A DNA stretch of 57,059 nt, the filler included, from Catajapyx aquilonaris (lineage: Eukaryota), in the NCBI GenBank assembly GCA_000934665.2. It is 3 parts of 3 records of this genome, joined end to end, with 100 filler letters (N's around TTAATTAATTAA, not from the genome) between each part and the next. Parts side by side here need not be neighbours in the genome. Positions count along the whole stretch, not along the records: positions 1 to 18,936 come from KZ539559.1; 2 more parts are not named here. The stretch is one strand, 5' to 3'. A program made the position numbers and the translations under genes. Below are positions 1 through 35,728 of this stretch, one piece after another. The notes beneath the pieces were generated by a model, which ran no database searches, was not told the DNA's origin, and saw only the letters and a list, made by a program, of their open reading frames with translations. Numbering within the stretch: the stretch's first letter is position 1; every line of letters starts with the position of its first letter.

Positions 1-67
1 CTGACTCGGTTCTGTTATCATGCCGTGTGGGTTGCTTAGGATAGCCAGGATAAAGCTCGTTTGCGGG
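1..67 (+). CDS. Probable upstream exon fragment of the channel (S4 segment)
   Basis: Frame 2 reads LGSVIMPCGLLRIARIKLVCG, followed by GT at 68. A phase-0 join to the exon at 734 (VLDFF) gives an S4-like LRxxRI..V.DFF pattern. An in-frame TGA at 2-4 lowers confidence. Confidence 0.45.
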
Positions 68-733
68 GTGTATGAAACTATATGTCGTATACTGTACTCT
101 ACTTGGCAGATACTCTTGAGTATTGCCACTTTCATGCAGGAGAGTCTGCAAAATGTACATTGATACAAAATAATGTGGTCTAAATTCTGAAACACAGTAG
201 AAATATCACTGCCTCTACTTAAACAAAGAATACAAGGACATGTGACACATTGCATGAGTAAAGTGGGCAGAGTCATCCGCTTTAATATCTATGGTTGATT
301 GGTTCAGGTGAAAACAAAGAATCCTCACCAATGTATAGAGTTGACCATGGGTTATCCACGGTATGGTTATTTGCAGTTTCGATTGTCTGCTGACGTACCA
401 CTTGTTGACTGTTTCACGTCCTATTGTCACTCAACATTCCTGTGAAATTAACCAATTTTAAAGAAGTAGTCTCAACTATTTTTGATGGAGGCTTTAGAGA
501 TACACATTTGTGTCAAGCTGGGTTTCATGATCAACAGTAAACCCTGAAGAAGTGATTGATCCTTCTTATTGTTTCAAACATTGGCACAGTTATGAATTAC
601 AAGGATGAATCACTAGTTCTGAATTCAATACTTCTCACATGATCAAGAATTAATGTCTGGATGTCACTAGTTAATGTCTTACTTCCCTTGCAATTGTGAC
701 TTGTATGTAATTATTTTCTGTTATTTTCCACAG

Positions 734-1197
734 GTACTTGACTTCTTTGTAAAAGCAGAATCAAGGGTACTTCATGGGGTCCAGTTCCTTAGGAATATCA
801 AGTGTATCATCCTTCTTGTCACAATGGTGCACTTGGTTTCTTGCCTCTTCCATGCAGTTTCATGTTTCTCACAGTGAGTTGAGTTGATTGGTTGGTTTAT
901 GCATATATTTATACAGTATTTTGTCAGCAGTTTGCTTGCTGGACAATTCTGCAAGCATTTCTCTACAGATCATTTGAAATAATTAAGCCATATTAATATG
1001 AACTAGAAAAGAGTGTTCATATGAAAGTCTGGGTGTAATTTATTATTGAATTAACCTTCTGTTCATTTGTTAAATTCATTTTTTCTGTAAAGAATTTCAG
1101 CTGGTTAATTAATGTTTGTGACGGTAACTTTTGTCTCTCCAGAGAACACATTACTGCGCAGCCAGTGGGGCTGAACGATCTATTTAATTTATTATTA

Positions 1198-1250
<53 letters not shown>

Positions 1251-4200
1251 TGTCAGTTGCTCCTCAACTCATTTTTTTGGTTGATAAATCTACATATGAT
1301 TATCATATTCATTTATAATGCAGTAGACTCCCAATATAACAGACTTCAAGGGACAGTGGAAATCAGTCTGCTGTAACTGAGGTCTGTTATAGCCACATGC
1401 ACAGGCCATAATTTATGAGGAAGTATGCTAGGAGCCTAGGACCAGCCTTTCATGTCTTCTATAATCCGGCATCTGTTATAGCCAAGGGTGTTATATCTGG
1501 AGTCAAGTCTATTGTTTTGCTGTCATCTGCTTTGAGACAATGTTATCTAATATTGTGTAATATAATGATTCAGCTGTTCCTGGCCAGTAAATGGAGGAAA
1601 CCTTGTAATTTTAGGGACTGCAGCAAGAATTCTTGGGTGCTTCCAAGTTGCATTAACCAAGGGCAGTATTTTGAGAACCCATATCTCTTAGCCCTCTATT
1701 GGAGCATGCAGGTTGTCACTTTCACCTGCTATGGGGATGTGGTGCCCCAGAACCTTCGTGAACTGGTCTTTGAGGTGCTCCTCACCATTGTCGTGCTTGT
1801 TCTTGCTGTGGGATACTACACTGCCTACATCACCTTGTACCTCATGGCCCAGTACCAGTTCAATGAACAATACATTCAACGTGTCAGGACACTAGTCACC
1901 TATTTGGATTCTCATAAGGTTAGATTAGTTGGTGTTGTCAACTTATTGGTAAATGGAATAATGTGTCTTCACTTGCAAGGTGGATAAAGAAATGAAGCAA
2001 CGTGTGGTTGACTACTATGAGATGCAATGGGTATCACACCTTGGTCTGGCCATGCCGGGAGTGTCCCCTATTGCAGATATGCCACCTACAGAGCGTCATG
2101 AACTTTTGTTACATGGCCCAGGAAAGCCCCTCTTGCAGGTGGAACTGTTCAAGGGCCTTAATAGGAGGGTTTTGCTTGATATTGCTAGCAAAATGAAGAT
2201 GTACTTTCTGCCAGCTGGGGCGCTGGTGACCAATGAGATCCACTACGGGACAGGCATGTATGTGGTTGTCAGGGGAAAATGCACAATATGGACATCCACT
2301 GGACGTCTGGTGTGTGAAAGGCATTCTGGGGATGTGTTGCTGTCACCAGTGGCTGTAATTCAGGAAGGCATGCCACCCCTGGGCTTAAGGACTCTCTGCA
2401 GCACAAATTGTATCTTTTACTACGTCAGCAACTGGAACCTTGGTAAAATCCTTGGGTATGGCACACGTTACGTAGGACCGCATCATGTACCGGTGAGTGT
2501 ATCTGTGTGTATGATATTTTTTTTTGCAGAGAGGGGAGGGGAGGTGTTGAATTCATCTCTGGTGTAAGACTCATTTTATAGGGAAATGTTATGATGGGTT
2601 GTTTGCCTCTTTGTACATCTAAAAAGCATAGAAATGGTCAAATGATTTGCATGATATGAATGGCAGAGCACATCTTCATTACAACTTTGGCAACGTTATT
2701 GGCCATGTTGAGTAGTGCATACATTTGGACACTACCTGCGCATTTAATTTCAATTTCTTAATTTTTTATACATTTAGGAAATTTTGAGTGAATTCATTCT
2801 TGGCATACTGACCTTCAATGAGCCACTCATTTTTACCAGTGAGTGGCAGATATTCTCTGCATGTAAACAAAATACGCAAACTCTCATTAGTGGTACCATG
2901 CACAGTTACACTTTTTAGCAAGTTTTTGTTGCATGTCCCAATAGTTGTGGCCATGATTACCTGTATGCCCAGAATGTTAGAAGAGGTGGAATTTGAAGAC
3001 AGCTTGTCAGTGGGATTGTCAGTGGTTCAGAGCAATAAGAAATCCACTTTGTACTTCTGAGTGTAGATTTCAGATGCAAGCACAGCACTTCGGATTTTCC
3101 AGGAAATGAAAAATAATTGGAGTAGCTGTCGCTTCTTTGGGGTTAAAAGAAGTGAATATGTCAACAGGCCTTAAATTCTGTCTTTTGATAAGCATATTTT
3201 TCGATTGGTCACATTCAGAAACACACCAGAGTCTCTAACATTCAGTCCAGTGGGACTAGTTAAGTCTTTAACAATAAAGAAACCTCTATGCAGGAATACA
3301 GAATTAGCTTAACCCTCTTCAGCTCTAGTTTGAGGCTGAGATGTACTAGTTGGACTGGTGGGAATTTATATTGTGAAGTGACAGCTCCTCTGCAGCCAAC
3401 TAGGGCCCCACGGATCAAATTTATTGCATAAAAAGTAGCCAAAGGTAAAAAAAATGGAAGTGCCAGAATATGCCAAAAAAAATCAATGCACTACTGAATT
3501 TTTTGTTATGAGAGCTCAGAGGTAGAAGGCTGTGAAGTTAACCATTATGCAGGGCATTTTACTGTATTGCCTCACAAAGAGTACCAAGAGTCCAGTATAA
3601 AATGAGGTTGACCAGTGGGTCTGCATACCCAGTGGAGCTGTCTGCCCAGTGTAAAGTGGGATAGAGTTTATTATTTCCTTCTTCCCTTGAAAATTGTATA
3701 TTTTTATGGGAACTTCAATTAATTGTCTGTAACTATATTCAGAAAACTGAATGTCAGGTTAGAATACATGAAGTTTAAATGTGTGCAGTCCACTCCATTT
3801 TTTTCCTCCCCAGAAGGCATGGTTTCAAAATTATGCATGCCTACGTGTAGAGAATGTGGACAAACTCCACTCAACACTGGTATGATGGTATAACCACCAG
3901 GTGTGCATTTTCTAAAATCTAATCACTCCTGATTTTACCATACTGCTGCTCTTTGCAGGGTAATATGGTATTATGCATATGATTTTTCAAGTTGCCATTT
4001 GCAATAATTTTGATACAATGTGCCTAGAAACATGCTTCTGAACATGTCCTTATAAATGAAATGTGAATACTGTGGAATATTCTGAATTTAATTGGTTGAA
4101 TTTCACCCCTTACGGTATATGTGCAGCTTATAATGGATGTGGGCAAGCTAATGGCTGCAATGAATTACAACCCTAAGGAGACCTCTTCTCCAACGCTGAC

Positions 4201-7200
4201 ACGACCTCGTTCAATTGATTTGCATTTAAACATGGAAGAGAGTGGCAGCAAGGATGTTAGCTGGTTCAAGAGACAAGATATTGGCAAGTTGAAGAAGTTT
4301 GCACAAAAAATAATTAGGCCTCACGATACTGTGCAGGATGTGAATATTGTCCCTGAAGCTTGGCCGAAGGATGAAAACTCATCACAGGGTTACATGTCAT
4401 ATTCGCGTAAGGACTCTATTCCAACAGATTCCTGGAGGATGATACCATATTGGATCATTATAAGTGAAGAATTTAATGCAAAGTGGGATTCTTATAAAGT
4501 CATGAAATTTCTCAGGTGAGATATAATGTATGAGTGTAAGATAGGTTATTTCTAGCAGTATTAATGTCATCAATCCTGCATTTAAATCAACTTTTAATGA
4601 AATTATATCAGTCACATTTTATGTTTTATACCGTACCATGAGTCTTAAATCAGTGGTCTATGGACCTGTGTGATGGGGGTTGCCAAAATATTGCCTGGTA
4701 AAATGACTGGGATATGCAATATACTTACTTGTATAATACAGTACGTACATGATCTGTTATGGCTGAAAAGTTATGTGAATGTTCAGATATCTCAATCACT
4801 GGCCAGCGGTGTAACCGATAGACCACCATGCCGCCCTCTTAGCAGCTATTAATCCAAACTCAATATGAAATAAAGGCTGAGAAATGCCTTATTTGTTGCT
4901 GTGCCAGTTTCCACAGGATTGTGAACCAGAATTGCATATGGGTACCATGAAGATATAATGGTCCATGTATGGTGACTTGTTAGTGCAAATTGACTGGACA
5001 TTTAAAAAATGGGAAAAATAACAACGAATTTGAAAATGTTGGCTGAAAGTACTAATCCTCTTAGCAATACGTTAAGTAATATATTGGGATATCAAATAAA
5101 TAAGTACCAATCACTTTCCTTAATTGCATTTGGTTATTTTCCTACCACTTGTACTTAACCTAAATAAGACACAATAACAGAATATTCAAAATGGTATGTT
5201 TGGTATTATTAGGGCTTAATAAATCACGCTATTGTAGCAGACTGGGACACTGAGATGAATTTGCAGTCTTAGTTAGACCCAAACTTCGCAGGCTGTTGCA
5301 CCTCAANNNNNNNNNNNNNNNNNNNNNNNNNNNNNNNNNNNNNNNNNNNNNNNNNNNNNNNNNNNNNNNNNNNNNNNNNNNNNNNNNNNNNNNNNNNNNN
5401 NNNNNNNNNNNNNNNNNNNNNNNNNNNNNNNNNNNNNNNNNNNNNNNNNNNNNNNNNNNNNNNNNNNNNNNNNNNNNNNNCCCCCCCCCCCCCCCCCCCC
5501 CATCGGGGATGTCCCAAGGGAGAGAGAGGAAAATCATATCATCTGTAGTGTAACAGGATATAAAATTAATATCCATATTAAAGTCTAACCCCCTTCCAGT
5601 AGGCCGAGTAGGGGATCTCCGTAAAAATTAGTTCCTTCAAAGCTCAGACAAATGTCAATGGAAAGACTTTCATGTCGGGAGACCAAATGTGCCAGGGGTA
5701 GGAGCACTCTGTACTGTACCAACCTACCCCATGACCTAACTTTCCTTCCCGCTGGATACAAGCCTAGGAAAGCAGGTAAAAGTGTGGGGTCTCCCGAAGT
5801 GAAAGAGTAGCCATGACAACCCTTATACATGTACTACTATCTGTGCTGTCTAATGTGGAATACTCCAGTGCAGGCAGTGCTGTTACTCCCTATGGGGCAT
5901 TGGATAACATTGTTCTTGATTAATTATCTTGTATCACTACACTCTATTTTAAAGATATTTTCCTTGGGGACACCCCCGACAGGGACATTTTTTCCGGGGA
6001 TGTCATATGTCGGGGACGAATTTCAGGGGACAAAATTTCTTGTCACCATAAGTTACTGCACTAGCAGCAGAACCAGTTCTTCGCAAGGCTGGTTTCCATG
6101 GTAACTCCTTTGGGTATAAAATTGGTGTAAGTGGGTATGAAATGGGTATATACCATGGGACCCCCCCCCCCCTCCCCCATCCACCTGTACAAACAAACTT
6201 CGCCTTTTACATAATTATGTAGATATGTAGATATTGTACTATTTTTGCTTTAAAATATTGGGTGTATGCTCTGAGAGTTATTAATTCTTGACTTTCCAGG
6301 TATTTCATGATGGAGAGAGCTCTAAATCCAAGTGGTACTTTCCTGAAATATTGGGAGATCTTCCGCATAATGACCATATTTGTTATGTCACTGGTGCTTC
6401 CTGTATTGGCTATTCACAAACCACATGATATTCTGGAATATGTCATAGCAGTGACCTTTGATCTCACCATCTATGCAGACATGTGAGTTTGTGTTGCTGT
6501 TTTGCTGCTATCCGTAAACTTTTGCTTGCACTGGTAATGCAATGTCCTTACAAACAAATACCACTTCCCGAAACCCATGCTGCTGGGATATACATGGTGT
6601 TCGGAAATGAGATACCAGCATGATACTAAAGTTTGATGACACCTTTCCGAATCGATAAGTTCATGCATTTGGTCTCATGCAACTAATGTACTACATAGGC
6701 TATCAGTGATTTGTCTAAACTTTAAATGCATTGTCCTGTGAGGACTAAAATGTGGACCAATTTTACACATAGTTATGTCTCACTATGACCTATACTGTAT
6801 AATGCAGATCATAATGTTCAGTATTATTCATTTAATACCTAGTGAAAGGCAATAACAAAACACTATGTGTAAAGATCATTTGGAACATGTGAAGCACTGA
6901 TTTTTAATACACCACATGGAAAGTTTTGCTATTTGATAGAATCAATGTCATGTGAATTTCTTGGTAGTTGTTCTGTTAATTGTGAGGTTACTTGTCAAAC
7001 ACAACTTTTTGGACATAGCAGTATATTTGGAAAGACTAACCCTTACTGGCATGCGGGATGCGGCAGGGGGAGTGGTGGCTGGGGACAGCTTGGCTATGTC
7101 GCAAAGGCAGATTGATTTTTTGGATTTTGGAAGGGTATGCTGTACCAACCTAACCTAACCAAGCCTAACCTTCCTTCCTTGCGGATACAGACCTATCTTA

Positions 7201-10200
7201 GCGACACAGCCCGCTGACCCCACCGACTACTACCCTCCCGCCTCCCGCATGCCAGTAAGAGCAAGTACAGCCGTATGTTTATGCATTTTTGTGTAGAAGT
7301 TGCTGTGTCCATTAAAGGGATCATTTACATTTTTGCATAGTCATGAGTAAACTGGGCCTGGTTTCTATATAGCCCATTATGTGTGTTAGTTTTTATTTTA
7401 GGTGTTTGCCGATTATTCTTAGCAGTTTGACTGACCTGCATAACACCTCCATACCTGCAATAACAAATAAATACTTTGCTATAGGTCTATACTGTACAGA
7501 CTGGGCCCAGAATACTTGTGACATTGTATGTTAATGATTCCAAAGGGATACATGCAGATCACAAGTCTATAGGAAGTGTAAGAGTTAACAGTGGCACTTT
7601 TTGAAACAAGGTATATGAAGTTGCATCTGGGATACTTCAATGAAAACAACGTGCTTGTGTATCATCAAGCAATGACCGCACATCGGTACCTGACTAATGC
7701 ATTCCCTATGGATCTCATGTCAGTGCTGCCTATTGAGTGGGCAGCCTGGTATGGCTTTGATCTGGCCAGCAAGAAGCATGGCCCAATGCTGTTCAGAGTC
7801 TGGAGGATGAACCGTATGCTGCAACTGTACAAAACTGGTGGATTTTTTTCACATCTGTCAGAGAATCTGTTCCATGCTGGCCATTTGATAAGGTTCCCCA
7901 GCTACTTAATCTTCTCAGTGATGTTCCTTAATGTGTTAGCTTGTACTGCTTTAGGAGTGGCATGCCCTACATACCTATGGGATGATGAAGTCGTCCGCTG
8001 CTTCAATGACTCCTGGATAGTAAAGGGTGGTGAGCATCACATTTTTATGGCATTATGAAACTGAGTTAGGATGGGGTAGTGCAATACATACAAAATTCAG
8101 ACATAATATAGTTAATAGTTTTAAACCTGGAGCCCTGATTTATTTTTCTAGTGCCCTTTCACCGTAGGGTCTTCAAGGAAAAAGTACAATTTCATTCTTA
8201 TCAAAAGCAGGGTTTTAAAACCTTTCATAAGTTTCATTTAAAAAATAATGTACTGTACACACCCAGGTGGGTAATACTGTAAGAAGCAGTCATCGTAATA
8301 CCTCACCCATGCTAATGTATGAAAGTCAAATGGGGTGATAGCATACTGGTCCATAATATATTGAAGAGTATGTTATTATCCTAAATATTTTCGAGTTTTT
8401 TGGCATGTCACTTTTCTTTTTGCAGGTTGGTGAAAATGGGGGTTTAAAAAGTCAACTTGAAAGCTTTAATGCAAGTTAATTATATATCAAAAATAATTAT
8501 CATCATTTAGACATATCGCATCCCGGCAATAACAGGGGCACAAGTCCAACAATGACGATTTTGACTTACTACTAGAGCAGGGTCCATGACTGCGTGCACA
8601 TTCAGAATGCATGTTCTGATTTTTAAAAATTAATAATTAATAATTCTGATTATTCGAATGCTGCATCAATACCTGATTTATGATAACACTATACCAACAC
8701 TATACAACTTTCAAAGTGCTCTCCTGTGAAATTGACTTTTTGGACTTGTGCCCCTGTTATTGCCGGGGTGCGTTTATGTAGGGATCCAGTAAAAGGAAGA
8801 GAGAGAGAAATATAATACATCTTTTTCAGACCAAAAAATAAATGAAAAACCTCTTTAAAATTTTAAAAAATGGAAGTTTTCCGGTGGAATTCATGACCAT
8901 AAAAATAATCGAAATAAAGCAATATCACTGAACAAAAACTTCACTTTTAAAATTCAAACCTTGAACCATTGGCCAAAATAATTCAGATTTCATTCTGGAC
9001 CAAAATAAAAATGCATTTCTTATTACCCATCAAAAATGTATTTCTCCACTCATAAACAAAACACAGTAACAAATGTATCTTATTATCATATCATTTATTA
9101 TTGAACATTATGATAGATATACTTGCTTTGAGAAGAGAGGATCTCTCAATCTACTGTATAAATGTAGCCTACACATAGCATGGTATAAAATAATGTTATT
9201 TTATACCATGCTATGTGTAGCATGCAATTACAGTCACAAGAACTTGATTAGACAAAAAATATGATTACTCCGGTTTTTGTCAGCATGCTTCTACTTAGGC
9301 TACATGTTAATGCACGCAATGGTCTTTTTTCCTGGCCCTCACTGCATCGTCTCCTTTAGAGGAAAAGGAGACGATGCATAGATAAAAAATGAATTCAAGG
9401 GAATAATCTTCCTTGGACAACATACTGTATAATGAATCACTCATTACCAAACTTGTTACTTCAATATTCCAAAGAAAAATGTATTCATCATGACTTCTGT
9501 TCCAACTCATGTGTTATTTACACTTTGTGACATTTATGAATGAGTAACTAGTATCATCTTGACATGTGATTTTAGGAATTCAGGACTACAACTCAAGCCT
9601 ACATGTATACCTTTACTCCTTATACTGGGCAACTACAAGTGCTGTCACTGTTGGTTATGGAGAATTAATGCCATTCACTACCCAAGAAGCTTTCATGTGC
9701 ATATGCTTCATGTTGAGTGGTAAGTTATGAGAGGATCATGTGACTCAGAACTGGGCTCATTATTTTCATCATGACTTTTTACAACAGGTTTCATGTTTTT
9801 TCACCTGATTATCACCAACATCAAAGCTCATGAGGTTGACCCAGATGCCATTCGATATACCTTTCGCAAACAACTGACCTTTTTGTTGGATTACTTGGTG
9901 CGCAATGGAGTCAGCCCTACGTTAGTCAGGTGAATTTTTCACACTATTTTGTATTTCAATTGGCTAAGGGGTACCGTAGATTAAGTTTTTAAGCACCTGA
10001 CACCCTTAGGTTTCTATAATTGCATATACTGTATGTTGGTAGATGAGGGGTATGAACAAGTAAATGCACTGGGTCAGGGATTACAGTAGGCTACAACCTC
10101 TATACAGGGTGAAGGGAAATTCGCCAGATAAACCTATAGTACTTGCAAAACTAATATAGGGATGTGCAATTAGTTCTTAGCTCCATAGTTAATGCGTATG

Positions 10201-13200
10201 GCGCCCTTAAAGTGTAGAGGGCCAGATGGTGGAATACGAGGCAAAAACAACAACGTGCATGGGTGTCATGCCCGGGTTCTTTCTCTGACGGGATTTTATC
10301 GCTTTTTGCACATGGACAATGTTGTTGGGGAACCAAGGCAAGGGACTGGAGGCCCTCGAACTGACTTTTGCTTAGAAGCTGGCGGAACGGATGTGACATC
10401 ATGAAACTTTGACCACACCTTACGCATTAACTACGCAAAGGAGTTCTAAACTAATTGCACATCCCTTGATTAGTTTCACGAGTACTATCAGTCTACCTGG
10501 CGATTGTCCACGAGTTTCCCTTCACCCTGTATACCGCTCTTCAAGGGACTGACCAAACATAGCGTTATATGAGGGAAATACGATTTAATTCACCCTTTTC
10601 TCAGGTAATGAATGCCTTCACTGTTGCTGTATGTAGGTTGAAGCCTATGAAGTATAAACTAGGCTAACGTGAACTGACCTGCCCACGTACCACATACAGT
10701 ATTTGATGTTATATGCGGAATAAGTGTGTTTCTCTGGGGACCAGGGAAATCGAGCAGTATATGCGGGAAAGCGTTAAAAGCAGGAAGCGAGTATAAGGGG
10801 TCGTGCAAATACCATGTGACCGATGTCGATGTTAGGCCACTTTTTGACAACCCCCCCACCCCCTGGGCCAACCCATTTCACGTGGTATTTTTAAATGTCA
10901 ATGTCAACTAACTTTGCTGGCTAATTGGTGAATTATTAACAGATCTGCCCATAACAGCCTGGAGCATCAGTGGCGTATGACATCTGGAATTGCATTTCGG
11001 GACCTATTCAGCTGCCTGTATCCAATGCTGGAAGAAGATGTTGCACATGCCTGCCTCCGATCAGGGCTTAACAAATTGCCATTTATCAATGAGCTCACTC
11101 TTTCAGAGTTACGCTTTCTTTCAGTAAATGTCAAGGAGTACTTTTATAGAATGGGAGAGGTCATATCACGCAGCAATGATATCCCTCCAGGTCTCACTCT
11201 CATCTGCAAGGGAAAGATTGCTGCCTGTTTCCCAAACAATGGATCTATGGTGCTAGGAGAGGGAGAGTATGTAGGCCACAACATGACCAAGGAACTAAAA
11301 GGGTTATGTACAACTTACTTTGAGTTTGTCCTCTAGCTTTGTTGGTGACTTGTCAGTATGGTCAGCGACATTCAGGTGCACATATGAGACACTCTCAGAG
11401 GTTGAAGTACTATTGTTCCTGATAGAGCATTGGGTTCTCATCCAGAAACATGCCCCAAGAGTGGCCAAGCTGTTTGCTCTATATGTGCCTAAACAAACTT
11501 GGGTATGTACCATATGTATAATCATGCGCCACATAAAATGGTGAAAAATTCAAGGTTCATTGAAATGCAAGTTAACCTGACAACCATAGCAAGCACAGTC
11601 ATGAATATGCCTAGGAAGGACCATTTTTCCATTTTGGTGTATGTGGTTTCTTGTATCACTACCCTTGGAACATTATTTGTTTGACATCAGCAACAGTTGA
11701 TCCAGCTGATATTTTCACAGGGGTGAATGGCGAGCACTCAACCATTCAGGCCCATCCTCCACAAGGTTGATATGCTGCTGGGATGTGGGATGGAGGAGGG
11801 ATTGTGAATAAATGCTTGGCCATGGCGCAATGTTCAGGTCAATCGGTGGGACAGAGGAGTAACCTACTCTTGAATAAACCTTTCACCCAAACCAATCCTT
11901 GCCTTGCTTCATTCATTGGCCTCCATCATCACATTTCACTGAGCTCTTACCTGCCCTTATTGTGGTTGCACATGAAATCGTCAACATAGTAGGTGATATT
12001 GGAATTTCCACTGGCTCTACTGCCTCTCGAATTCAATCAGACTTGGTTCACATATTAATACCTTCATGAATCATGATAATTTTTATTTTCAATATACCTG
12101 TATTTGTAACAATGACCATGTATTGTTGAATAATCCACTTTTTATTGAACATTGTAGTGATTTCACTTTTTAATGTGCTGAGGAGACATACAACATAATT
12201 ATGTGGCTCATTTATTATTGTTAGGTGAATTTATTATAAAGCCCTTTTTGGTAAATTTCAGCTTGGGAAAGGGCTGATTGACTGAAATTAAGGTTTGGCC
12301 CACAAGACCATCTTCTATCAAACTTTTCTCTGTACCCTTAGTGTAGTTTAGTAACCTTCATTTCCCATTTAACATATATTACAAGTACTGTGACTGCATT
12401 AGAGTTATGTTGTGGAAATCACTGAGATTCATATTGTAGTTTAGAGAGTACATGAATGCAATAAAGCCATGCCTCTATGGCCATAACTGAAACTCATTGT
12501 GACCTATAATTTTGGTCCTGCCAAGTGGCCTATTGCATGTGGAAAGATATTTTGGAAATTTACGATACAGTCTGGGCTTCTGATTTGATGTTAGGTAAGT
12601 TTTGAAGGCATGATTAATCCAAATATAAATTTAAAGCAGGATCATCTACAGCAGTAATGTGGTTTAGATGGTTAGCACTCAAAAAGCTCTAACAGCAAAT
12701 TTTGGCATTAACTTTTAATTATTATGAATATTATGGGGAGGCTTTCACCCTTGCACCCTGCACGATGTCTGAAGAAAATTAAGAAAATAGTGATAGAAAA
12801 ATGGTGGTGTTCCACCCCCCTAAATGGGCTTTGTCTCCCAATGGGGTAAGTAAAGTAAAATAAAAATATATTTAAAAAATTATTAATTACCGTAAAATGG
12901 GGCTACTTTGATCCCTGCGGGGCTTCTTTGGTCCAAGCACGTACCAAGTACTTCAAAAATGCATAAGATGGCAGGTAATTATACTAACTACATGTAACAA
13001 GCACAGTCAGAATCACTTAGGGTTGGTGCATCTGTGGTAAAGGTGTCATACATTGAAGTTTGCAAACCATCCTGCAGAGGGCTACTTTCCACTTTGTGCA
13101 CTTTGTCACTTCGGCGTGAGTTTTCAAGAAGTCCATACTGCTAAGACCTGTGCAGCCGCACGTGTAGGTATAAACTTCATTTAGCATGCTAGGATTTGTA

Positions 13201-16200
13201 ATACATTTAGTTGCCATTCCAGGCATATGTAAGTCAAGAAATAATTCTTATCAGGAATTGTGTGGGGGAAAAGAAATCAAAAAAGTTGTAAGTGATGGGG
13301 TACTTTGGTACATAATATTCTTGGATCAAAGAAGCCCCAAGGCTTCTGGTACATTATGGCCATGATAACTGGACTCTCTGGGTACAGTCAGTGAGTTCAA
13401 AACCCCACCCCACCCCACCCCATGGGGCTCCTTTAGTCCTGTACAGTGTTATATAATCTGCACTCCATGAACAATAGTGCAAAAGTGTTGCTAAGATGCT
13501 CAAGAATTGTGCATAATTTTTTAGTGCTCGAAACTGCAATTTTCAAGGGAGATATTAACCAAAATAACCAAAAATTGGTACAAAGTAGCCCCACTTTACA
13601 GTATAGCTGCAATTTACTGAAGAATGTAGTAGGCTGTTTTGTCATGATTTTCATTTTTTGTACCGGTACTGTAATTGATTTCCTGAAACAGACAAAATAG
13701 CCACTTCTTACAGTACCAGTACTTTACGTTATGAATGCCATTCAGCACAAGTGGTAACCTATACAAGAATGGCTAGATACATATTCTATGTTTGGATATG
13801 ATTCAAAAAAACAATTACAGTGATGTAGATAACACAACTGTTATGCAAATTTTTTCTGATTTGTAACAGTCTTTGTTAAAGTCATGACAAGTTGTGTGAT
13901 GCAATGAGATTCTGTGAGTTTGAAATATATATTTCCTTGTAATGACCACATTTTGTATACTAAGATTTTTGTTTTCCCCTTGTTTCTCAGTTGTTATCAC
14001 AGCGGAGAACCACCGTAATGACAGACCTCCCTGATGATGTCAGGTGTTATCTGCATGGCCACCCTCAAGCATTGACCACAAGTGACTCCAGTTCTAACGT
14101 AAACAAAAATCAGTCCTTCAGTGCTATACCATTAGCAATCTTCAACTGGAAAAATCGCCTTATCCGCCATGGAAGCCCTGATGACAGGGATACCCGACGG
14201 ATGTCATTTGCTCATGTCATCAGCAACAAGATGAATGTCTCTTATCTGGTTTTTCATCCAGATTGTCGGCTAGTTCACTCGATGCATGTGATTAATGGTG
14301 CTGGTGCTTTTGTCTCCATCTGGCTAGTTTTCTACCAGGCAGCAATGAATCACTCTTTCGAAACAGCCGCTTACGTACACACTGCTGTTACAATTTTGCA
14401 CTGGCTGCAAATAGCCTTGCACATAACCACAGGCTACAGAGATGAGCACAAGGTTATTGTTTGGGATCGAAGATCAATATGGAATCACTACAGGAACAAC
14501 AAGCTTCAGTTTTACATTGACATCCTGATGGCCACACCCATTGACATCATTTCCATATTTCACGATCACTACTGGCTTCTTTATATCAGGATCATCTACT
14601 GCCTGCGAATTGTAAGCTCTGTCAGCTTGTCATATTGAGGGCCCTAGTTTGAACACTAGAGGTAACTTACTCATGGGCATGTTATTTACTGTTACCGTAA
14701 CATTGTAAGGTGCATGATCATAGTAGTGTCCCATGGGTATTTTATTTCAGGTGTCCATAATAGGGGCCTGAACCAGGTAATATGTCGCCAGTAATGAATT
14801 TGTGAGTTTTTTTGGCGTTATTTTTATAACCTACAAACTGTTTGTTGATTCAATCAGGTTATTGTCCTGATCACTGTGGTGAATACAGTGTGGAATTCAG
14901 TGGTGTGTGGTGAGTAATTTGAAGTCTCTACAATTCAAATAGGCGAACGTTGTAAATTCTTATAAATGTTTTTCGTACCTGATGCGGGATGAATAGCAAC
15001 ATACTGTAGTTAAAAATCGAATTTTTAAATGTTTTAATGGAATGCCATTGTTATTTAAAATTAGATAAGCATTGAAGTTGTGATTATTGAGATTGAGAGA
15101 ATTTTGAATTTCCGAATTCAAAATTTTAACCATGTCCCTGCACTTTTTTTTCTTTCTTTTTTTTTGTCTTAGGCCAATTCCATGCTTGACCTAGAGTCCT
15201 AGACTGTAGAGCCTACAATAGTGGGTAGACTGGTAGGGCACTTTCATGGAATTTTGAATAAAACTACCAAGTTAATAATTTCCACAAATTTTTGACCATC
15301 AAACATTTTTTTAAACCAAATTAAGCTCCTATGAACTTTATTCCATGTTGAAAAGGGTATACATTGAAATACAAGTGTCACTATTGACCCAATCTATGGG
15401 GTGGTCCTCTTTTGCCTCTGTGGATGTGTAGAAGATCATTAGATGAACTTCAAAGATACCAGGACAGTACTTGAACTGATTTGAACCCAATTTTGCCACC
15501 ACCTTACAGTTAGCTGCATACTTTTGGCTCATATACATTGCCTGACCTTTATTCTTGCTGGCAGGAATTTTTCCAACATTACATTTGAAAATATGAAATA
15601 CCACTTATTGCATCTCATCATTCTAAGAATCTCATAATGATTGGTGAGTGTTAACTCAAAAATTCAAAATACTTCAAGCAGGAAATAACATAGTGACATC
15701 CAAGGGGGTAGTCACTCCTCAAAAAAGTGTACACCGGCTCTCCGCGGCTCTCCCCCGGCCCACCAGCAGGCTCATCCATGGTATTATGGGCTCACCGCTG
15801 CATTGGAGAGCCGCAAAGAGCTGCAGAGAGCTTCGGAAAGCCAACTACGTCACAACCTGCGGGATGGATGATAGGACATCAATATGATGTAGTTTTCCCT
15901 CGGCTCTCCGCGGCTCACCAGTGAGGGTGTACACCGGCTCTCCGAAGTGACTACCCCCTTGGTGACATCATTGCCATTTGTTATTGTATTCAATATTTGC
16001 TGCATGTACGTATATTGCACTGAATAACTATGAAAATAAATTTTGTTCCCTTAGGTGTATGTGGACAAAGCGTTTCTGTTGGACCCAGATGACATCAATC
16101 AGAACCTGGTCATTATTCGCATTCGCAAGCTCATCGTGATGCTTCTATTATTCTGCCATTGTGCTGCCTGTTCTCTCTATATTGCCAATTGTGCTTTGGG

Positions 16201-17545
16201 TCATTGTAATCATGCTGATTATTTCTATGACATATGGGAGACTGAAAGTCCATATATGCACCAGGGCGGTGCAGGACTTAGTAGTGCAGGAAAGGGATGG
16301 CTTGAGAATCTTCTTCCTGGAGAGGAGAGCTGGCTTTACTTGAGAAGATATTTGACTGTCCTGACTTGGGTGATACATACTGTCACCATGGTGGGGCTCA
16401 ATTCTCTGAGTCCTTACTCCCACACAATGCTAATTTTCAGCATTTGCCTCATGGTGGCTAGTGTGTTTGTTATGGGAAGAGTCATGGGAGGTCTGGCATC
16501 AGTCCTGAGATATGAGTACCAGAATCAGATGATATTCATGCAGGTTGTGAAGGTGGTTATGGTAAGTGTTACACAGTATTACATTGAGTATAGAAATAGT
16601 GCCCAAACAACATCCTGCATTGCTTCCTCAAAGTGAAATCCATGATCTTGCTGATGCTTCTTTAGCTCCCCAAAAATGTGGAAGTCACAGGGGGACAAGT
16701 CTGGACTGTACTCCGGATGCTGGAGTAATTTCCATACGATTATTATTATTTTTTTTGGAAAGGCAAACCGAGATGATTTTCGTAGTCGGGGCAGGCATTA
16801 TTATATGAAAATGAACGTATTATTCCTGCAGGCGGCTTGGACTTGATTGAAACTCAAGGGGCTGGAAGCATGGAGGGTCATATTGACTTTTTGGACCACA
16901 AAAGCCCACCACTGATCGAGTTTATGATGATGCCCACCCACACACTGAAAATCATTGAAGATTGCATTTCCATATTTAGATGGAAAACACTCCAGCATTT
17001 GGGGTATGGCCCAGATTTGTCCCCATGACTTTCACATTTTCAGGGAGCTGAAGAAGCATCTACCTTCTACTGTCACAAATTTCACTTAGAGGAAATGATG
17101 CCGAGTGATGCAGAATGCTGGTTGGGAAGGATTTTGTCAGCAATCTACCAACTTCTTTGCAAGAGACACTTGAGACTGTCTCATTATTTTTTATGCAATC
17201 ATAGTGTTATGTACTAGAATTGGAATGCAGATCTTCACTTATTTTAATCAATTCAACGAAGATTCAAGAGGGATCAATTTATTATTATTCAATATGAGGG
17301 ATCCCATATTCTCAGTTTAAACACTTCTAAATTCTTGTAGGCCATATTTCACGTCACATTTTTTATTGCAGAAATTCTTGCATTCAATGGGACTTGAAAA
17401 AGAGAAGACGGACACATTACATAAGTATTGCAAGTACAAGTGGTTTCTTTCTGAGGGTGTGTACCAGCAGGATTTGATGAAGAATCTTCCAAGATGTCTC
17501 CGGAGTGATATTTGCTGGCAGCTGTATGCAGAGAGATTGCAAGGC
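734..17545 (+). CDS. Concatenated cyclic nucleotide-gated K+ channel (CNGK/tetraKCNG-like), partial; 13 exons
   Basis: Phase-consistent GT-AG exons: 734-873, 1615-1918, 1980-2492, 4127-4515, 6300-6482, 7611-8029, 9576-9719, 9788-9929, 10943-11266, 11337-11502, 13991-14611, 16055-16561, 17372-17545 (4026 nt, about 1342 aa). Three tandem transmembrane + C-linker/CNBD units. Pores: LYWSMQVVTFTCYGD, LYWATTSAVTVGYGE, LTWVIHTVTMVGLNS. S4 FRVWRMNRMLQLYK. C-linker RVVDYYEMQW..MPPTERHEL. The 5' part lies upstream of the window. Confidence 0.88.
1321..1514. mobile_element. pogo/Tigger-like MITE (TATAAC/GTTATA family)
   Basis: Starts CAGTAGACTCCCAATATAACAGACTTCAAGGGAC and is similar throughout to the copies at 36280-36458 and 33584-33750. 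Confidence 0.6.
7016..7274. mobile_element. Palindromic non-autonomous element with internal (AACCT)n
   Basis: Inverted repeat CTTACTGGCATGCGGGA / TCCCGCATGCCAGTAAG, with AACCTAACCTAACC inside. Confidence 0.5.
8517..8772. mobile_element. MITE with about 33-bp TIRs
   Basis: CGCATCCCGGCAATAACAGGGGCACAAGTCCAA ... TTGGACTTGTGCCCCTGTTATTGCCGGGGTGCG. Confidence 0.7.
10105..10529. mobile_element. Tc1/mariner-type MITE
   Basis: TA-CAGGGTGAAGGGAAA ... TTTCCCTTCACCCTG-TA, plus subterminal inverted repeats (GGGATGTGCAATTAGTT / AACTAATTGCACATCCC). Confidence 0.8.
12890..13601. mobile_element. pogo-like non-autonomous DNA transposon
   Basis: TA-CCGTAAAATGGGGCTACTTTG ... CAAAGTAGCCCCACTTTACAG-TA, with internal copies of the GGGGCTTCTTTG motif. 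Confidence 0.75.
15701..15961. mobile_element. MITE with 16-bp TIR and 8-bp TSD (P/hAT-like)
   Basis: Perfect TIR CAAGGGGGTAGTCACT / AGTGACTACCCCCTTG. Perfect TSD GTGACATC at 15693-15700 and 15962-15969. Internal CGGCTCTCCG repeats. Confidence 0.88.
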
Positions 17546-17802
17546 GTGAGTGTTTTTCTGAACATTAGCAGGATACCTTAATCAAATTGGTCAACATATG
17601 GACCTTGACCTAGTCAGTAAGGTGCAGATATCGTATGTCAAGAGCGTGAATCCTGTCTCAATCTGAGTAAATTGCACTCAGTCTTGAGGGATTGTCACAG
17701 GTTGTTGATGGAATTATGCCCAGTCCCTCATGCTACAGTTTTTTAACAGTATTACGTACAGCTGAAATCACCTTCACAATCTGTGAAATGACAGTCATGT
17801 AA
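17546..17802 (+). pseudogene. Frameshifted CNBD-like continuation of the third visible channel repeat
   Basis: With two compensating frameshifts (about 17570 and 17620) it reads VSVFLNIS/GYLNQIGQHMDLDLVS/GADIVCQERESC..LHSVLRGLSQVV. This aligns by eye with the first CNBD (VELFKGLNRRVLLDIASKMKMYFLPAGALVTNE..MYVVVRGKCTI). Confidence 0.55.
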
Positions 17803-17825
17803 ATGGATCCCATTCCCTATTATGT

Positions 17826-18115
17826 GTTTTTTTTTACGTTACCCTGTGATAAGGCGGAGCCAGGGGCGGAGCCTTTTTAGGGGGGTGGCACACCACCATC
17901 AGTTTTCTAGTAACTGTGTACTATTTTTCTTTGCTCACCAGTGCAAGGAGACAGGGACATGGGTAAGGATAGGGATTTTTGAGTGGGGAACATATATGTG
18001 GTACAAGTGCAAGGTCTGTAAAGGGGTCATGTGCTGTTCCCCAGGAGGTTAGGTTGCCAGACACCTCCAAGGTGCAGGTCAGAGACCCTCCTGACGCAGG
18101 TGAAAGGAAAGTGAT
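17826..18115 (-). mobile_element. SINE family A, 5'-truncated copy
   Basis: Highly similar to 25066-25330 but lacks the tRNA head. Near-perfect TSD ATTCCCTAT(T/G)ATGT at 17812-17825 and 18116-18129. Confidence 0.8.
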
Positions 18116-19036
18116 ATTCCCTATGATGTTAAAATGTGCCACTTCGCCTACTCGTAGGAACTCTCAAGCCAGAAAGGTTATCATGGAATAAGAGACAGAT
18201 CACAAGAGAAATATAAATAAAAACAGCCTTTCCTGTATTCGTTCTCTCTTTTCTCTCTCCATCTATCCATCTGTATACCTTATTGTACAATATAGCCATA
18301 CGGCCTTGTTTGCTTTGGTTTCTTCCTTCTCAAACAACAGACAAACAAACAAACAAGAGGAATATGAAGTATGTGGCCAATCTCTGTCAGCAGGTGCAAA
18401 ATACAAATGTAATTTTAACTATGAGTAAAAAGCTTCATAATATTGTCCAATCACTTAGTTGTGTACCAGTAAAGTGGTAAGTGCCCAAATGGCTAAATGG
18501 CACATTCTGTCATTCTTTGATGAAAGATGACAACCAATATGTTTCCCCACTGATAGCATCATTGCGCTCCTCATTCACATGCAATGTTATAGGTCAATGG
18601 TCAACACTAATTACAGTGCTTAGTAACTCATAAAAATAATTAATTTTTAAAACGTTGTCAGCACCAACTATGAGTCGATAGCATGCATTTACTAGTACAT
18701 AAGAGATTATATGTGCATTAAAGTAGCTGTCTTACTTGTGCAAGGAAAAGTGCCTCCACCTCCACCACTGATAGCTCTTTCTTCATGCCACATTGCACCT
18801 TCCACATTTTAAATGTGAGACCTTTATGTCAAATTAATCGTCAAAATCATCCACAACTCATGCAATCTATGACTAAATTCTGGATGTAGGTACTGTAATG
18901 ATATGCTAAGATATGTTCTTGTGTAGTATCTCCTATNNNNNNNNNNNNNNNNNNNNNNNNNNNNNNNNNNNNNNNNNNNNTTAATTAATTAANNNNNNNN
19001 NNNNNNNNNNNNNNNNNNNNNNNNNNNNNNNNNNNN

Positions 19037-19198
19037 GAAGATGTTACACCAGCATTTCCGACACATTTTCCATGCACAGATTTGTTTTGCAGGCAAAAAA
19101 AGCCAGGTGTCCTGGGACTTTTCGCCCACCCTGTACTACCATTGCTCCTCGCACAAGCTAAACCTTGTCGTGCACGACTTAAACGTCATCCCACAAAT

Positions 19199-19273
<75 letters not shown>

Positions 19274-20787
19274 CCGGGGTAGTGCTGACCTCATCAGAGG
19301 TATGTAGCACGGACCTTTATTTATTTTTGTCGTGTACATTGGAGCCTTTATACGTAACGCCCGGGCCCACGGGCAGGATGACAGGAGGGGATGTGCAAGG
19401 TGCAGTGCAATGTCTTTATGTGGCCATTTTTAGTGAACTCCCCGGGTGGTTTAGTCTGTAGGAAATACCACCCGAGACGAAGCCAGAGGTGACCCAATGA
19501 ACTCTGCACGAGATGAAGGGGGTGTCCCCGGGTTGGGATCGAACCCGGGACCTTAACATCCGTGGGCGCGTACGTTACCGCAGCACCACTTCGCCTCCCC
19601 TCATCCCACAAATTAGAAACTGCATTGGAACTATCAAGGAGATAATCATATTTTTTCGCGAGTCCGTTTTATGCCGCAACGTTATTGCTAACATTCCTAA
19701 ATTGTGTGAGACTAAATGGTCAGAGAAGTACAAATGCATTTCTGTCTTTAAGGATCACTTCGTTGATATTGTCGATGCATTAGAGACATTAGCTGAAGAG
19801 GGAAATGCAGTAACTAGAAAAAATACATATCAAATGCATGCAGCGGCATGCAGATCTTCATTTGTTGTGTCAATAGCATTAATTGCGAAGTATTCCGCTA
19901 TACTGGAACCCGTAGCAAATACACTTCAATTGAAGACACTTGACATAGTCAAAGCCAACCAGCACATTTAAACTATTCTCGAAATGCTAAGAGTTCATCG
20001 GGAAGATGCGGAGAACGTCACAGCTGACGTTTTGAAAGAAGCAGGTGACATTGCGAAGCATTTGAATGTTGATATAACCGCCACTCACGTTGCTGGCCGA
20101 CAAAAGCATAGAAAAGCAACCCTCCAGCCGAAAATCTATCCGAATTTTGGCGAAGGTCTCTAATAATTCCTTACTTGGATTCCATCATATCATCTTTAGA
20201 AATGTCAGATGTTCTGCAGACAAATCGCCTGCATTTTCATTGACACATTTCCATCCGAGTAACATGAGAGATGTTTCAATGGAGGAATGGAAAGAAAGTA
20301 CTTCATTTTGTGCAACTTTTTACAATTTGGAAGCAAGTTTGGATGGTATCGAAGGAGAAAGGGAATTGTGGTTCAAAATGTGGAATGGGGTACAGGAAGC
20401 ACTAGACATCATTGAGGTTTTAAAAAAGAGCAAATTGTTTTTCCCCGCCATTAAAAAAGCACTACTGATATTGCTTTCACAGCCCTGCACAACAAGCACT
20501 ATAGAGCGTTCATTCAGCTCACTTCGCCGAATTAAAACATGGCTAAGAAGCACTATGGCTGAAAATAGGTTGAATGGGTTAGCCATGCTAAGCATTCACA
20601 GTCAATGGGTTTTCGGAAACAAGGAACAATTGGTGGAAGCTATAATCAGAAAATTTGCAAGTAATCCTCGCAAACTATTGTTCAAAAATTAATTCGGTTC
20701 TTACGTTATTGTGAATTTCTCTCTCTCTCTCTTCCCCCCCCCCCCCCCCNNNNNNNCCCACCCCCTCTGCCGCTGGATACACCCTTG
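19037..20787 (+). mobile_element. hAT transposon remnant (ZMYM1/PRKRIR-like transposase, disrupted)
   Basis: Motifs HCSSHKLNL, LCETKW and the C-terminal hAT dimerisation motif PCTTSTIERSFSSLRRIKTWLRSTMAENRLNGLAMLSIH. Contains stops/frameshifts and a SINE insertion. Probable right TIR CTGGATACACCCTTG ends at 20787; the 5' part is lost in the gap. Confidence 0.88.
19201..19600 (-). mobile_element. tRNA-derived SINE family B inserted in the hAT transposase
   Basis: B-box GGTTCGATCCC on the - strand, (ATT)n tail, and perfect 15-bp TSD TCATCCCACAAATTA (19186-19200, 19601-19615). Confidence 0.92.
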
Positions 20788-21713
20788 CCACTGTACGACA
20801 ATAGTGAGATGAAACCGCGGACTAAAAGGGATGAAACATGACGAACATGATAGTCATAATTATGTTGCACATGCGTTCAACCGTTAATAGTTCTGTTCTT
20901 TGTACTCGTGTATCACCCGTTTGTGCTCGGCGACCGGTACCAGAACGGCAGAACTTCTTGCCACATTCGTTGCACGCAATGCAACGGCACTCTTCGGCAG
21001 AACAACTTAAGTTGCACTTGTACTGTACGGCCTCCCCTTGAAATGGCCCAGTTCGTGTATGTCCCGCGACATCTTAGGCTTCTTAGCAACGTACGACTTA
21101 CCGCACACTTTGCATGCGTGCAGTAGCCCTACGGCTGCTCGCCAGTGTCATAGCCAGTGTGAAGCCGCGGATGGTTATAACCAGCAGATTGAACCGGTTA
21201 ACCAGCAGATTGAACCGTGACGACAGCACCCTCCCGCATTCCTTGCACGTTTCAGGCATAAAAGGCGGCTGCTTACTCGATCTGAACTCCTACGTTCGAT
21301 GGTGTATCTTCAGCCTGTTGTCTGAACTGAGGCTTTTTCCAGGTCACACGCTCACAAAGACGCCAACGTGCAACATACTGATAGAACAAACTTCTCAACC
21401 GTTACGTACAGTCAAATCAAAATAGTAGCGAACTCTGGACATCGACTGGGCACAAATAGTTGGCGAAATTTGTATTTAAACCTGATTTAAACATTGCTAA
21501 AAATTTGTTACGTAAGCTGATGAGAACGGATCGTTTTATATTTTGGATTGAGTCATTGCAGTTTATTTTTATATGCGTGTACATTCCCTTCATTGTTCAT
21601 GGAGAGCGATGGAGGGCTTGAAGCCTTGAACCTTGAAGGAGTGCTTATATTAGCCGAATATTTTCTGCTCTCTCCTACATTACCGGTTGGCTGCTATAGG
21701 GGCGCAGCAGAAA

Positions 21714-21920
21714 TTCTGCCGTCAGATGTAAGAAGACCGTATCTCAAAAACTAGTGAGGGTGAAAGTCACATGCATGCCATATGTACAGTACACCTATGT
21801 ACTAATCCCCTCTGAGTCAGGTGGGAATCGTGCAGGCGTATGCATGCGGCCACGGACGAGCATGCGCCTCTCACCCTCACTAGTTTTTGAGTTACGGTCT
21901 TCTTACATCTGACGGCAGAA
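21714..21920. mobile_element. MITE / foldback with about 50-bp TIRs
   Basis: TTCTGCCGTCAGATGTAAGAAGACCGTATCTCAAAAACTAGTGAGGGTGA ... TCACCCTCACTAGTTTTTGAGTTACGGTCTTCTTACATCTGACGGCAGAA. Confidence 0.8.
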
Positions 21921-22406
21921 ATGCAGGGAACAGCTGCAGAATATAACAACTACAATAATTACTCCTTCAAAAGCTCTCCTTGAATAATGAAGGGATTGTA
22001 GAGTACAAGCAAACCCAAAGAGACGACTGCGCATGTAACGAATCAATCCAAACATATAGAACAAGCCGGCCTTATCGCAACTGCATGCTAAATTTTAGCA
22101 CTGTTGAAATACACATTTTCTTGAAAATTATTAGTGCAAAGCACGTGCCCCCATTTCGCTACTATTTTAATTTAACTGTATGTAACGGTTGGAACTTTGA
22201 AATTTCGGTTGTAGGTTGACGTCCGTCGTTGTGAGCTGGAAAAAGTTTCTGTTCAAACAGCGAACACATCAGTTCAGACCACGTCTGCCAGCCAGTGCCG
22301 GATTTACCCCCTCGGCTGCCCCTAGGCAGTTGAGATCTTCCCTGAATTTTTCAATTACGTTTTATGTGATAATGAATATTCATTGCACATTTAAATTATT
22401 GGAAAT

Positions 22407-22737
22407 AATAATAATAGTTGGGTGATAGGCGTACCCCTAGGGGTTTTCAGCCAGACCTTTATTTTGACGTTGGTACAATTTTTGGGAATCCTATTTTTGA
22501 AGTGCCCGGGACCACGGGCAGGATGACAGGAGGGGATGTGCAAGTGCAGTGCCTTGTCTGAAATGTGGTCGTTTTGTGAGCTCCCCCGGGTGGATTAGTC
22601 TAAGGAAATTCCACCCGAGAGTCAGAGACAACTCATGAACTCTGCATGAGATGAAGGGGGTGTCCCCGGGTTGGGATCGAACCCGGGACCTTAACATCCA
22701 TGGGCGCATACGTTACCGTAGAACCACTCCGCCTCCC
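22407..22737 (-). mobile_element. tRNA-derived SINE family B
   Basis: Head near-identical to the 19201-19600 copy. TSD TAAATTATTGGAAAT at 22392-22406 and 22738-22752. Confidence 0.9.
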
Positions 22738-28037: not shown

Positions 28038-28100
<63 letters not shown>

Positions 28101-31615: not shown

Positions 31616-31618
<3 letters not shown>

Positions 31619-34020: not shown

Positions 34021-34037
34021 TGACATCATGCCATACA

Positions 34038-35724: not shown

Positions 35725-35728
<4 letters not shown>

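Follow-up and report, generated by a model that had tools for sequence, protein, structure and literature searches.

Gene A of Catajapyx aquilonaris is supported by sequence comparison as a member of the CNGK family by descent, and we see about an even chance that it is an intact arthropod CNGK relative whose asymmetric pore is under selection and has little or no K+ selectivity left, with sperm as the probable site. In the proposed mechanism, gene A would encode a single chain of four S1–S6 + CNBD repeats from an arthropod branch of CNGK whose pore turned asymmetric, and covalent linkage of the repeats would give every channel a mixed filter. Such a mixed filter would break the fourfold carbonyl cage that selects K+, so that cations could pass with weak or absent K+ preference. 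The current of gene A and its tandem paralogue B (46% identical; a paralogue C is more distant) would then be expected to depolarise rather than hyperpolarise.

The window, that is the whole stretch of DNA analysed (57,059 nt of assembly GCA_000934665.2, three joined parts with 100-N filler between them, positions 1–18,936 being KZ539559.1), carries the middle part of the four-repeat, CNGK-type gene A, repeats 2–4, on the plus strand in one spliced frame. Its 13 exons there, all with AG/GT ends, encode 1341 aa with 0 stops, and the start of the first exon was refined to 734. Repeat 2 consists of exons for the S4–S5 linker and S5 (734..873; 26/46 aa identical to paralogue B), for the pore helix, filter and S6 (1615..1918; Pfam Ion_trans_2, E 1.6e-5) and for the C-linker and a degenerate CNBD2 (1980..2492; no Pfam match at E 0.05). 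The linker exon between repeats 2 and 3 (4127..4515) has the lowest conservation of the exons (33/116 identical to B). Repeat 3 is encoded by exons for S1–S2 (6300..6482), S2–S5 (7611..8029, with S4 RVWRMNRMLQLYK from about 7795), the pore helix, filter and start of S6 (9576..9719), the end of S6 and start of the C-linker (9788..9929), the C-linker and first part of CNBD3 (10943..11266; no Pfam match in the CNBD3 part) and the degenerate CNBD3 cassette (11337..11502). Exons for a linker and S1–S4 of repeat 4 (13991..14611), for its S5, pore helix, filter and S6 (16055..16561; Pfam Ion_trans, E 1.4e-4, under the curated cut-off) and for its C-linker (17372..17545) follow. The last intron (17936..18936, plus strand) matches the start of contig C5922 at 96.5%, and this contig holds the CNBD4 exon of gene A and, about 6 kb on, the start of paralogue B.

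Gene A extends past both ends of contig C4081, with repeat 1 and the last exon on other contigs. Repeat 1 was located on C1470 and C8438, which were joined by exon order and by comparison with paralogue B. A three-repeat protein is ruled out, as repeat 1 was found on these contigs and matched in B; the three repeats of the original prediction are present, but they correspond to the last three of four repeats and not to the whole protein. A gene-model artefact, with contig pieces that do not belong to a single four-repeat transcript, seems scarcely tenable. The model was built from genomic sequence, is incomplete at the linker exon(s) after CNBD1, and uses exon order instead of overlaps for the joins C1470–C8438, C10269–C8661 and C4664–C4716. 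However, repeats 2–4 of the four S1–S6 repeats of the chain lie in one frame on one contig, exon phases are equal in A and B at all 19 exons compared, and a single contig carries the whole set of four repeats of gene C. Splice ends of B are AG/GT but for one GC donor.

Closest matches of gene A are four-repeat CNGKs. In a tree built without pore columns, from which single-repeat CNG, HCN and KCNH channels were left out, A and B were nested among arthropod CNGK members, and the arthropod group was supported at 100/100. The predicted pseudo-tetramer is supported by the four repeats together with this placement. Moreover, a C-linker and a CNBD follow each repeat, CNBD2 and CNBD3 of gene A align with CNGK CNBDs, and the repeat-4 pore exon has its top phmmer match in the fourth repeat of a crinoid CNGK. 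For the same exon, a word-based search gave 0 matches among 351 candidate proteins of ≤2000 aa, which is weak evidence, and the AlphaFold model was poor (mean pLDDT 52.8, pTM 0.30); an ESM Atlas search returned generic Ion_trans/cNMP clusters only. Among the genome matches listed, no further A/B-like copy was found, and C3398, C570, C132, C1473, C1272, C78, C1716 and C36 resemble single-repeat CNG, HCN, KCNH or Kv genes, these names being our reading of the sequence.

Filters of repeats 1–4 read MQGYGK / FTCYGD / TVGYGE / MVGLNS in gene A and MRGYGT / FTCYGD / TVGYGD / TVGLYT in gene B. A pore HMM aligned VTFTCYGD (1715..1738, plus strand; identical in B), AVTVGYGE (9641–9664) and VTMVGLNS (16382–16405) of gene A all in filter register, and its repeat 1 filter on contig C8438 is AYMQGYGK. 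In both genes, repeat 1 keeps GYG with M and Q/R ahead of it and no D behind, repeat 2 has F at the KcsA T75 position and C at the G77 position, repeat 3 has a K+-type filter, and in repeat 4 L stands at Y78, with N (A) or Y (B) at G79. The GYG tripeptide is found in repeats 1 and 3 only and the complete TVGYG in repeat 3 only. Hence the claim that only the middle repeat has a canonical GYG needs correction: TCYGD, TVGYGE and MVGLNS are all present in frame, but repeat 1, outside the window, also has GYG. Neither A nor B carries the GYG/GFG K+ filter in all pore repeats. Judged from these alignments, the deviation exceeds family noise, because G-[YF]-G is kept in 44/44 filters of 11 non-arthropod four-repeat CNGKs and in 4/8 filters of A and B. 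Assembly error is an unlikely source of the odd motifs, since the same CYGD recurs, together with a matching GLY, in paralogue B, which lies on different contigs.

In A as in B, the 19 exons contained 0 internal stops, and the reading frames, of about 2170 and 2250 codons, had no frameshift. Over 2140 aligned codons of A and B, pS was 0.69 (near saturation) and pN 0.35; uncorrected pN/pS for repeats 1–4 was 0.50, 0.54, 0.44 and 0.51, with all 95% intervals <0.64, and identity at the three codon positions was 0.58/0.70/0.43. The filter loops, each repeat having its own, are conserved between the two old paralogues, with 64/96 identical in the four pore windows vs 46% overall (P=0.003 against four random windows). 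Decay of A/B therefore appears unlikely, given exons free of stops, pN/pS of 0.44–0.54 and above-average conservation of the pore windows. The original prediction had relaxed selection as its alternative and set GYG in all orthologues and dN/dS near 1 against specialisation. Neither was found: paralogue B and the lepidopteran relatives do not all carry GYG at these positions, and per-repeat pN/pS between A and B is about 0.5, which with the intact frames and conserved pore windows backs selection on repeat-specific filters. Pore-loop conservation may also reflect folding, since most channels are best conserved in these loops.

We give a low probability to relaxed selection, in which A and B would be fast-evolving duplicates losing function and short gene conversion would cause their likeness. 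It would fit the long stem branch to A/B (1.77 substitutions per site), the differing nucleotide cassettes of A and B, their near-identical repeat-2 filter DNA (37/38 bases same) and the saturated dS, which makes recent relaxation invisible; the intact frames, the codon-position identities with pN/pS of about 0.5, and odd filters held across many moth families speak against it. Short gene conversion could be the source of the common repeat-2 filter, but conversion at this tract was not significant gene-wide (P=0.85), and gene-wide gene conversion is not supported.

Lepidopteran and beetle four-repeat CNBD proteins share with A/B the four repeats and a repeat-2 T-F-T with a non-glycine behind it. 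A/B, beetle and moths were grouped at 82/80 on long branches, and the alternative topology, with A, B and C as one group, was not rejected (AU p=0.079). Orthology of A/B with the lepidopteran and beetle genes is only moderately supported by this tree, and the likeness to moths may be convergence in view of the 82/80 support and the AU result. Among 41 lepidopteran relatives, repeat 2 was found in 38, with G77 in 0/38, F75 in 34/38 and H78 in 38/38; repeat 1 had I-G in 34/34, repeat 3 T-G in 38/38, and repeat 4 G77 in 39/39 with V78 in 35. In both the A/B and lepidopteran lineages, G77 is kept in repeats 1, 3 and 4 and lost in repeat 2, and repeat 4 is aliphatic at Y78. Outside repeat 2 the filters differ considerably (IPIGPS / TFTxHxE / TTTGY[NGS] / TQNGVGD in moths; about 19% overall identity), those of moths and beetle being more altered than those of A/B, and GYG occurs in only 12/38 repeat-3 filters of moths and in no other repeat. 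In the literature searched, which lacked most subscription journals and supplements, we found no paper on insect CNGK filters and no functional study of these lepidopteran and beetle proteins. The label of the Danaus protein is a database name and not a functional test, and labels of moth proteins as potassium-selective may be wrong.

Altered ion selectivity or gating of A/B is plausible from these filters. BK, GIRK2 and Shaker are no longer K+-selective once the G77-equivalent glycine is substituted (PMC11251424, cited, like the other papers here, from the parts of the text available), and G-to-C at this glycine abolishes it in human GIRK2 (bioRxiv 10.64898/2026.07.28.741201). The GIRK2 mutants, weaver G156S and human G154S and G154C, lose K+ selectivity with the same filter glycine replaced, in G154C by the residue of A/B (PMC11251424; bioRxiv 10.64898/2026.07.28.741201). 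Unlike A/B, these are disease mutants of a Kir homotetramer with all four subunits changed; that the mutant data come from homotetramers, while in A/B G77 is changed in one repeat of four, counts against our best reading. It is unlikely that the pore is still K+-selective, perhaps at low conductance, with the odd repeats tuning gating or inactivation. The GYG loops of repeats 1 and 3, kept in A and B, are probably diagonal in the pore, KcsA G77A retains selectivity in liposome flux assays and some T75 mutants are also selective in some assays (PMC11251424), and normal subunits can give partial rescue, with wild-type partners able to restore weaver GIRK2 in some stoichiometries (bioRxiv 10.64898/2026.07.28.741201). 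However, T75, G77, Y78, G79 and D80 are changed over three repeats of A/B, a filter glycine is lost in 0/44 non-arthropod CNGK filters, and GYG is restricted in moths as above. Selectivity cannot be read from the filter motif, as the available text of PMC7576140 warns.

We consider it rather unlikely that the central pore is shut and that the protein, like the sperm proton channel HCNL1, persists because of its voltage sensors or CNBDs or serves as a scaffold. In its favour, Kv and HCN4 pores stop conducting when the first filter glycine is changed to S (PMC7306766), three of the four filters are altered and those of moth and beetle relatives still more so, and four arginines are retained in the S4 of repeat 1 in both A and B. 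HCNL1 and HCNL2, HCN-like proton channels of fish sperm, are likewise CNBD channels with a changed filter, and HCNL2 has S at the first glycine that is C in repeat 2 of A/B (PMC7306766). However, both have a single repeat, and HCNL1 has a long S4 with Met and a dead pore whose filter string, in the accessible part of PMC7306766, is not conserved between species, whereas filter residues are conserved within each lineage in A/B and the lepidopteran relatives. A long arginine series with inserted Met of the HCNL1 type was absent from the S4s of A/B, whose patterns match marine CNGKs.

The S4 argument of the original prediction holds in so far as RVWRMNR (within 7792–7827, repeat 3) and IRIIYCLR (within LYIRIIYCLRI, 14579–14611, repeat 4) differ. 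But marine CNGKs likewise have uneven S4 charge from repeat to repeat, and the Y of IRIIYCLR stands where four of them have H, not R; charge asymmetry was rejected as a special feature. The FGE..R cassette is indeed missing at 2319–2399, but from CNBD2 and not from the first CNBD, and its loss in CNBD2 has precedent in zebrafish CNGK (PMC4749565). Degenerate CNBDs are common to CNGKs and A/B. Pfam cNMP_binding was above cut-off in CNBD1 and CNBD4, with none in CNBD2 or the first CNBD3 exon. CNBD1 keeps GE..R in A and not in B, and CNBD3, with a register doubtful by one residue, has GD for GE in both, reading GD..R in A and GD..K in B. In CNGKs, gating is by cGMP at CNBD3 in sea urchin and by pH in zebrafish (PMC4749565). 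In A/B, cyclic-nucleotide control would be lost or confined to one site, CNBD1 of A, and gating by another cue, such as pH as in zebrafish CNGK, would then be likely.

In the available parts of PMC7576140, PMC4749565 and PMC6259924, CNGK is described as a sperm channel, symmetric and selective for K+, that occurs in marine invertebrates, fish and choanoflagellates, with filter deviations that are rare and not clade-wide. CNGK or tetraKCNG proteins (sea urchin, zebrafish, coral; Anneissia XP_033108885.1, Branchiostoma XP_035668949.1) are, like gene A, one chain of four S1–S6 + CNBD repeats, although A/B are only 20–25% identical to the marine ones; described members have GYG/GFG and are K+-selective (PMC4749565), whereas A/B have one canonical filter of four. 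Described CNGKs are termed pseudo-symmetric, with repeats lacking specialisation, in the accessible text of PMC6259924. The whole arthropod branch seems to depart from this picture repeat by repeat. Tentatively, insects and their kin may have an undescribed CNGK-derived subfamily with a fixed asymmetric filter on four linked K+-channel repeats, in which the repeat-2 glycine was lost early and stayed lost from the Catajapyx lineage up to butterflies; the one-residue-set-per-repeat design of Nav/Cav would then have been reached a second time, by an independent route, with new ion selectivity, probably in sperm. Four-domain Nav, Cav and NALCN channels resemble A/B in that linked repeats permit a different filter residue per repeat (PMC6259924). 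A/B do not belong to this class: its channels have no CNBDs, and the filters of A/B, unlike theirs, descend from GYG loops. Nav and Cav filter rings are of the DEKA or EEEE type, and no such ring is seen in A/B.

With one canonical and three altered loops in a natural single chain, this channel could show how many loops must be intact for K+ selectivity. Paralogue C, none of whose four repeats has lost either filter glycine, may be the better candidate for any K+ role left. A and B might be at work in sperm, and lead to a candidate ion channel of insect sperm not studied so far. The genome encodes CatSper-beta, and a Pieris rapae transcript bearing the name of the lepidopteran four-repeat family is pupa-specific in the part of PMC4948883 available.

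The channel gene A lies in the window within contig C4081 (1–18936), where 13 exons, flanked throughout by AG and GT, encode 1341 amino acids without a stop. The filter motifs TCYGD, TVGYGE and MVGLNS, the two S4 strings and a CNBD lacking FGE..R were all confirmed where the original prediction had put them. Searches of the animal's own genome located the missing parts: S1–S5 of repeat 1 on C1470; the repeat 1 pore, CNBD1 and S1–S4 of repeat 2 on C8438; and, on C5922, the exon that encodes CNBD4 and contains the stop. Hence, the window holds repeats 2–4 of a protein that has four repeats and, in a model without the linker exon(s) after CNBD1, is at least 2168 amino acids long. That the gene model is an artefact seems very improbable; three of the contig joins were made by exon order alone, and the last part of C4081 (17936–18936) matches C5922 at 96.5% along roughly 1 kb. 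In addition, window positions 2–97 are the exact reverse complement of the final 96 bases of C8438, probably through inverted ends of an intron element that broke the assembly.

A tandem paralogue, B, starts about 6 kb downstream of A on C5922 (7847 onward) and continues on C10269, C8661, C4664 and C4716, with exon phases equal to those of A in 19 exon pairs. The repeat 4 pore exon of B has a GC splice donor at the place where A has GT. A more distant paralogue, C, has all four repeats complete on one contig (G000:C1584, about 12650–25850, minus strand; loci L018 and L019) and carries no nucleotide cassette with the binding arginine in place.

The asymmetry of the filters is the strong part of the finding. 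Read in the register of KcsA positions 73–80, the filters of repeats 1–4 are AYMQGYGK, VTFTCYGD, AVTVGYGE and VTMVGLNS in A, and SYMRGYGT, VTFTCYGD, ATTVGYGD and ITTVGLYT in B; those of C (ITTAGLGD, LSNCGFGD, FLLVGYGD and FSTTGYGD) keep both filter glycines in all repeats. G77, Y/F78 and G79 were present in 44 of 44 filters of 11 non-arthropod four-repeat proteins, picked for spread from phmmer and profile matches with close relatives, partial records and protist proteins excluded. Among 30 database proteins scanned, in which two amphioxus or partial records matched incompletely, the exceptions were a barnacle (Pollicipes) pair with GSG in repeat 3 (P0043 and P0044), a moth protein, and two protist-like four-repeat proteins (P0045 and P0048) with VIGD in repeat 3, one of them also with GLG in repeat 1. 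As judged from sequence, VIGD apparently arose by a separate loss of the first filter glycine, so that outside arthropods, too, G77 has disappeared from a single repeat.

The relatives in insects also deviate. No recognisable GYG was found in any repeat of the beetle protein (P0104, Onthophagus). In 41 lepidopteran proteins, several per genus and thus not independent of one another, the first repeat (recovered from 35) has I-G in all 34 readable cases and GYG in none; repeat 2 (found in 38) has G77 in none, F75 in 34 and H78 in 38; repeat 3 has T-G in 38 of 38 and G79 in 12; and repeat 4 has G77 in 39 of 39, V78 in 35 and G79 in 34. Since the family as a rule has threonine at position 76, the derived repeat 2 traits common to A, B and the moths are F75 and the absence of G77.

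When the repeat 4 pore exon was compared by phmmer with 1.84 billion representatives, 11 matches were obtained, including an amphioxus four-repeat channel and, at the top, repeat 4 of a crinoid one. A profile search gave 26 proteins, barnacle and moth members included, and the moth protein, used as query, matched 42 (41 lepidopteran and one beetle). In the IQ-TREE analysis (15 rows, 1438 columns, pore columns excluded), arthropod proteins form one group (100/100), within which A, B, C, the beetle and the moths are grouped (99/98); A and B join the beetle and moths at 82/80 with long branches, and the alternative topology A+B+C was not rejected (AU p=0.079). By descent and layout A is a CNGK; because its filters depart from the CNGK filter, it is classed as a variant rather than a K+-selective member. 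CNGK repeats show no obvious specialisation according to a part of PMC6259924, whereas the filters of A differ by repeat, and large filter deviations typify single channels rather than clades in an excerpt of PMC7576140. Four-repeat CNBD channels are not mentioned in a portion of bioRxiv 10.1101/2025.02.15.638427, and our literature search found no publication on the filters of insect CNGKs. Databases do contain insect members, one labelled potassium-selective.

A is an intact four-repeat gene under selection, and its four filter loops all differ. Its alignment with B (2140 codons) shows 46% identity (codon-position identity 0.58/0.70/0.43), with pS of 0.69, pN of 0.35 and no internal stops in either gene. 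Uncorrected pN/pS of repeats 1–4 is 0.50, 0.54, 0.44 and 0.51 (95% intervals within 0.38–0.63), values which overstate omega because pS is near saturation. Moreover, the 24-residue pore windows of the four repeats have 64 of 96 residues in common between A and B, more than four randomly drawn windows would (P=0.003). Drift is thus given little credence, with saturated dS hiding any recent relaxation. The repeat 2 filter DNA (window 1715–1750; locus L014, about 3676–3711) is identical between A and B at 37 of 38 bases, with synonymous sites near saturation elsewhere. Short gene conversion is a possible explanation of this likeness; however, no conversion tract reached significance gene-wide (P=0.85).

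A fixed mixture of filters would be expected to break the fourfold K+ binding sites. A conducting pore with poor K+ selectivity has, in our analysis, about an even chance of being correct; BK, GIRK2 and Shaker channels lose K+ selectivity when the first filter glycine is replaced (PMC11251424, in part), and G154C has this effect in GIRK2 (bioRxiv 10.64898/2026.07.28.741201, in part). A change of this glycine to serine leaves Kv and HCN4 pores non-conducting (PMC7306766, in part), and a non-conducting pore is an unlikely alternative. A pore that is still K+-selective is also doubtful; KcsA G77A kept selectivity in one assay (PMC11251424). All of these mutants, from BK to KcsA, were homotetramers. 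A role of A in sperm may be suggested by the CNGK family (parts of PMC4749565, PMC6660944 and PMC8640785), by CatSper-beta exons above the Pfam cut-off in the genome (G000:C1074, 39197–40311; loci L069–L071) and by a pupa-specific Pieris transcript bearing this family label (PMC4948883, in part).

The differing S4 charge, proposed as a special feature, proved ordinary for the family, as it likewise differs between repeats in marine CNGKs. S4 of repeat 3 follows the family pattern RxNRxLQLY, and the tyrosine in S4 of repeat 4 is histidine at that site in four of six marine proteins displayed. In CNBD1, GE..R is kept in A and not in B; the CNBD2 cassette is lost in both, CNBD3 reads GD..R/K in uncertain register, and CNBD4 reads FGQ..H. 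Degenerate CNBDs are known in CNGK of sea urchin and zebrafish (PMC4749565, in part).

In the window, distinct contigs of about 19 kb are strung together by runs of N (18937–19036 and after 38038), C4082 forming 19037–38038, so that genes past 19037 do not lie next to the channel gene. These include a hAT transposase remnant (19501–20692; C-terminal dimerisation domain, E 6.9e-11), a THAP domain ORF (23034–23426, E 1.7e-12), an RRM exon (39095–39451, E 3.5e-8), which presumably resembles transformer-2, and an oxidoreductase NAD-binding domain gene (45569–46687, minus strand, E 1.5e-5).
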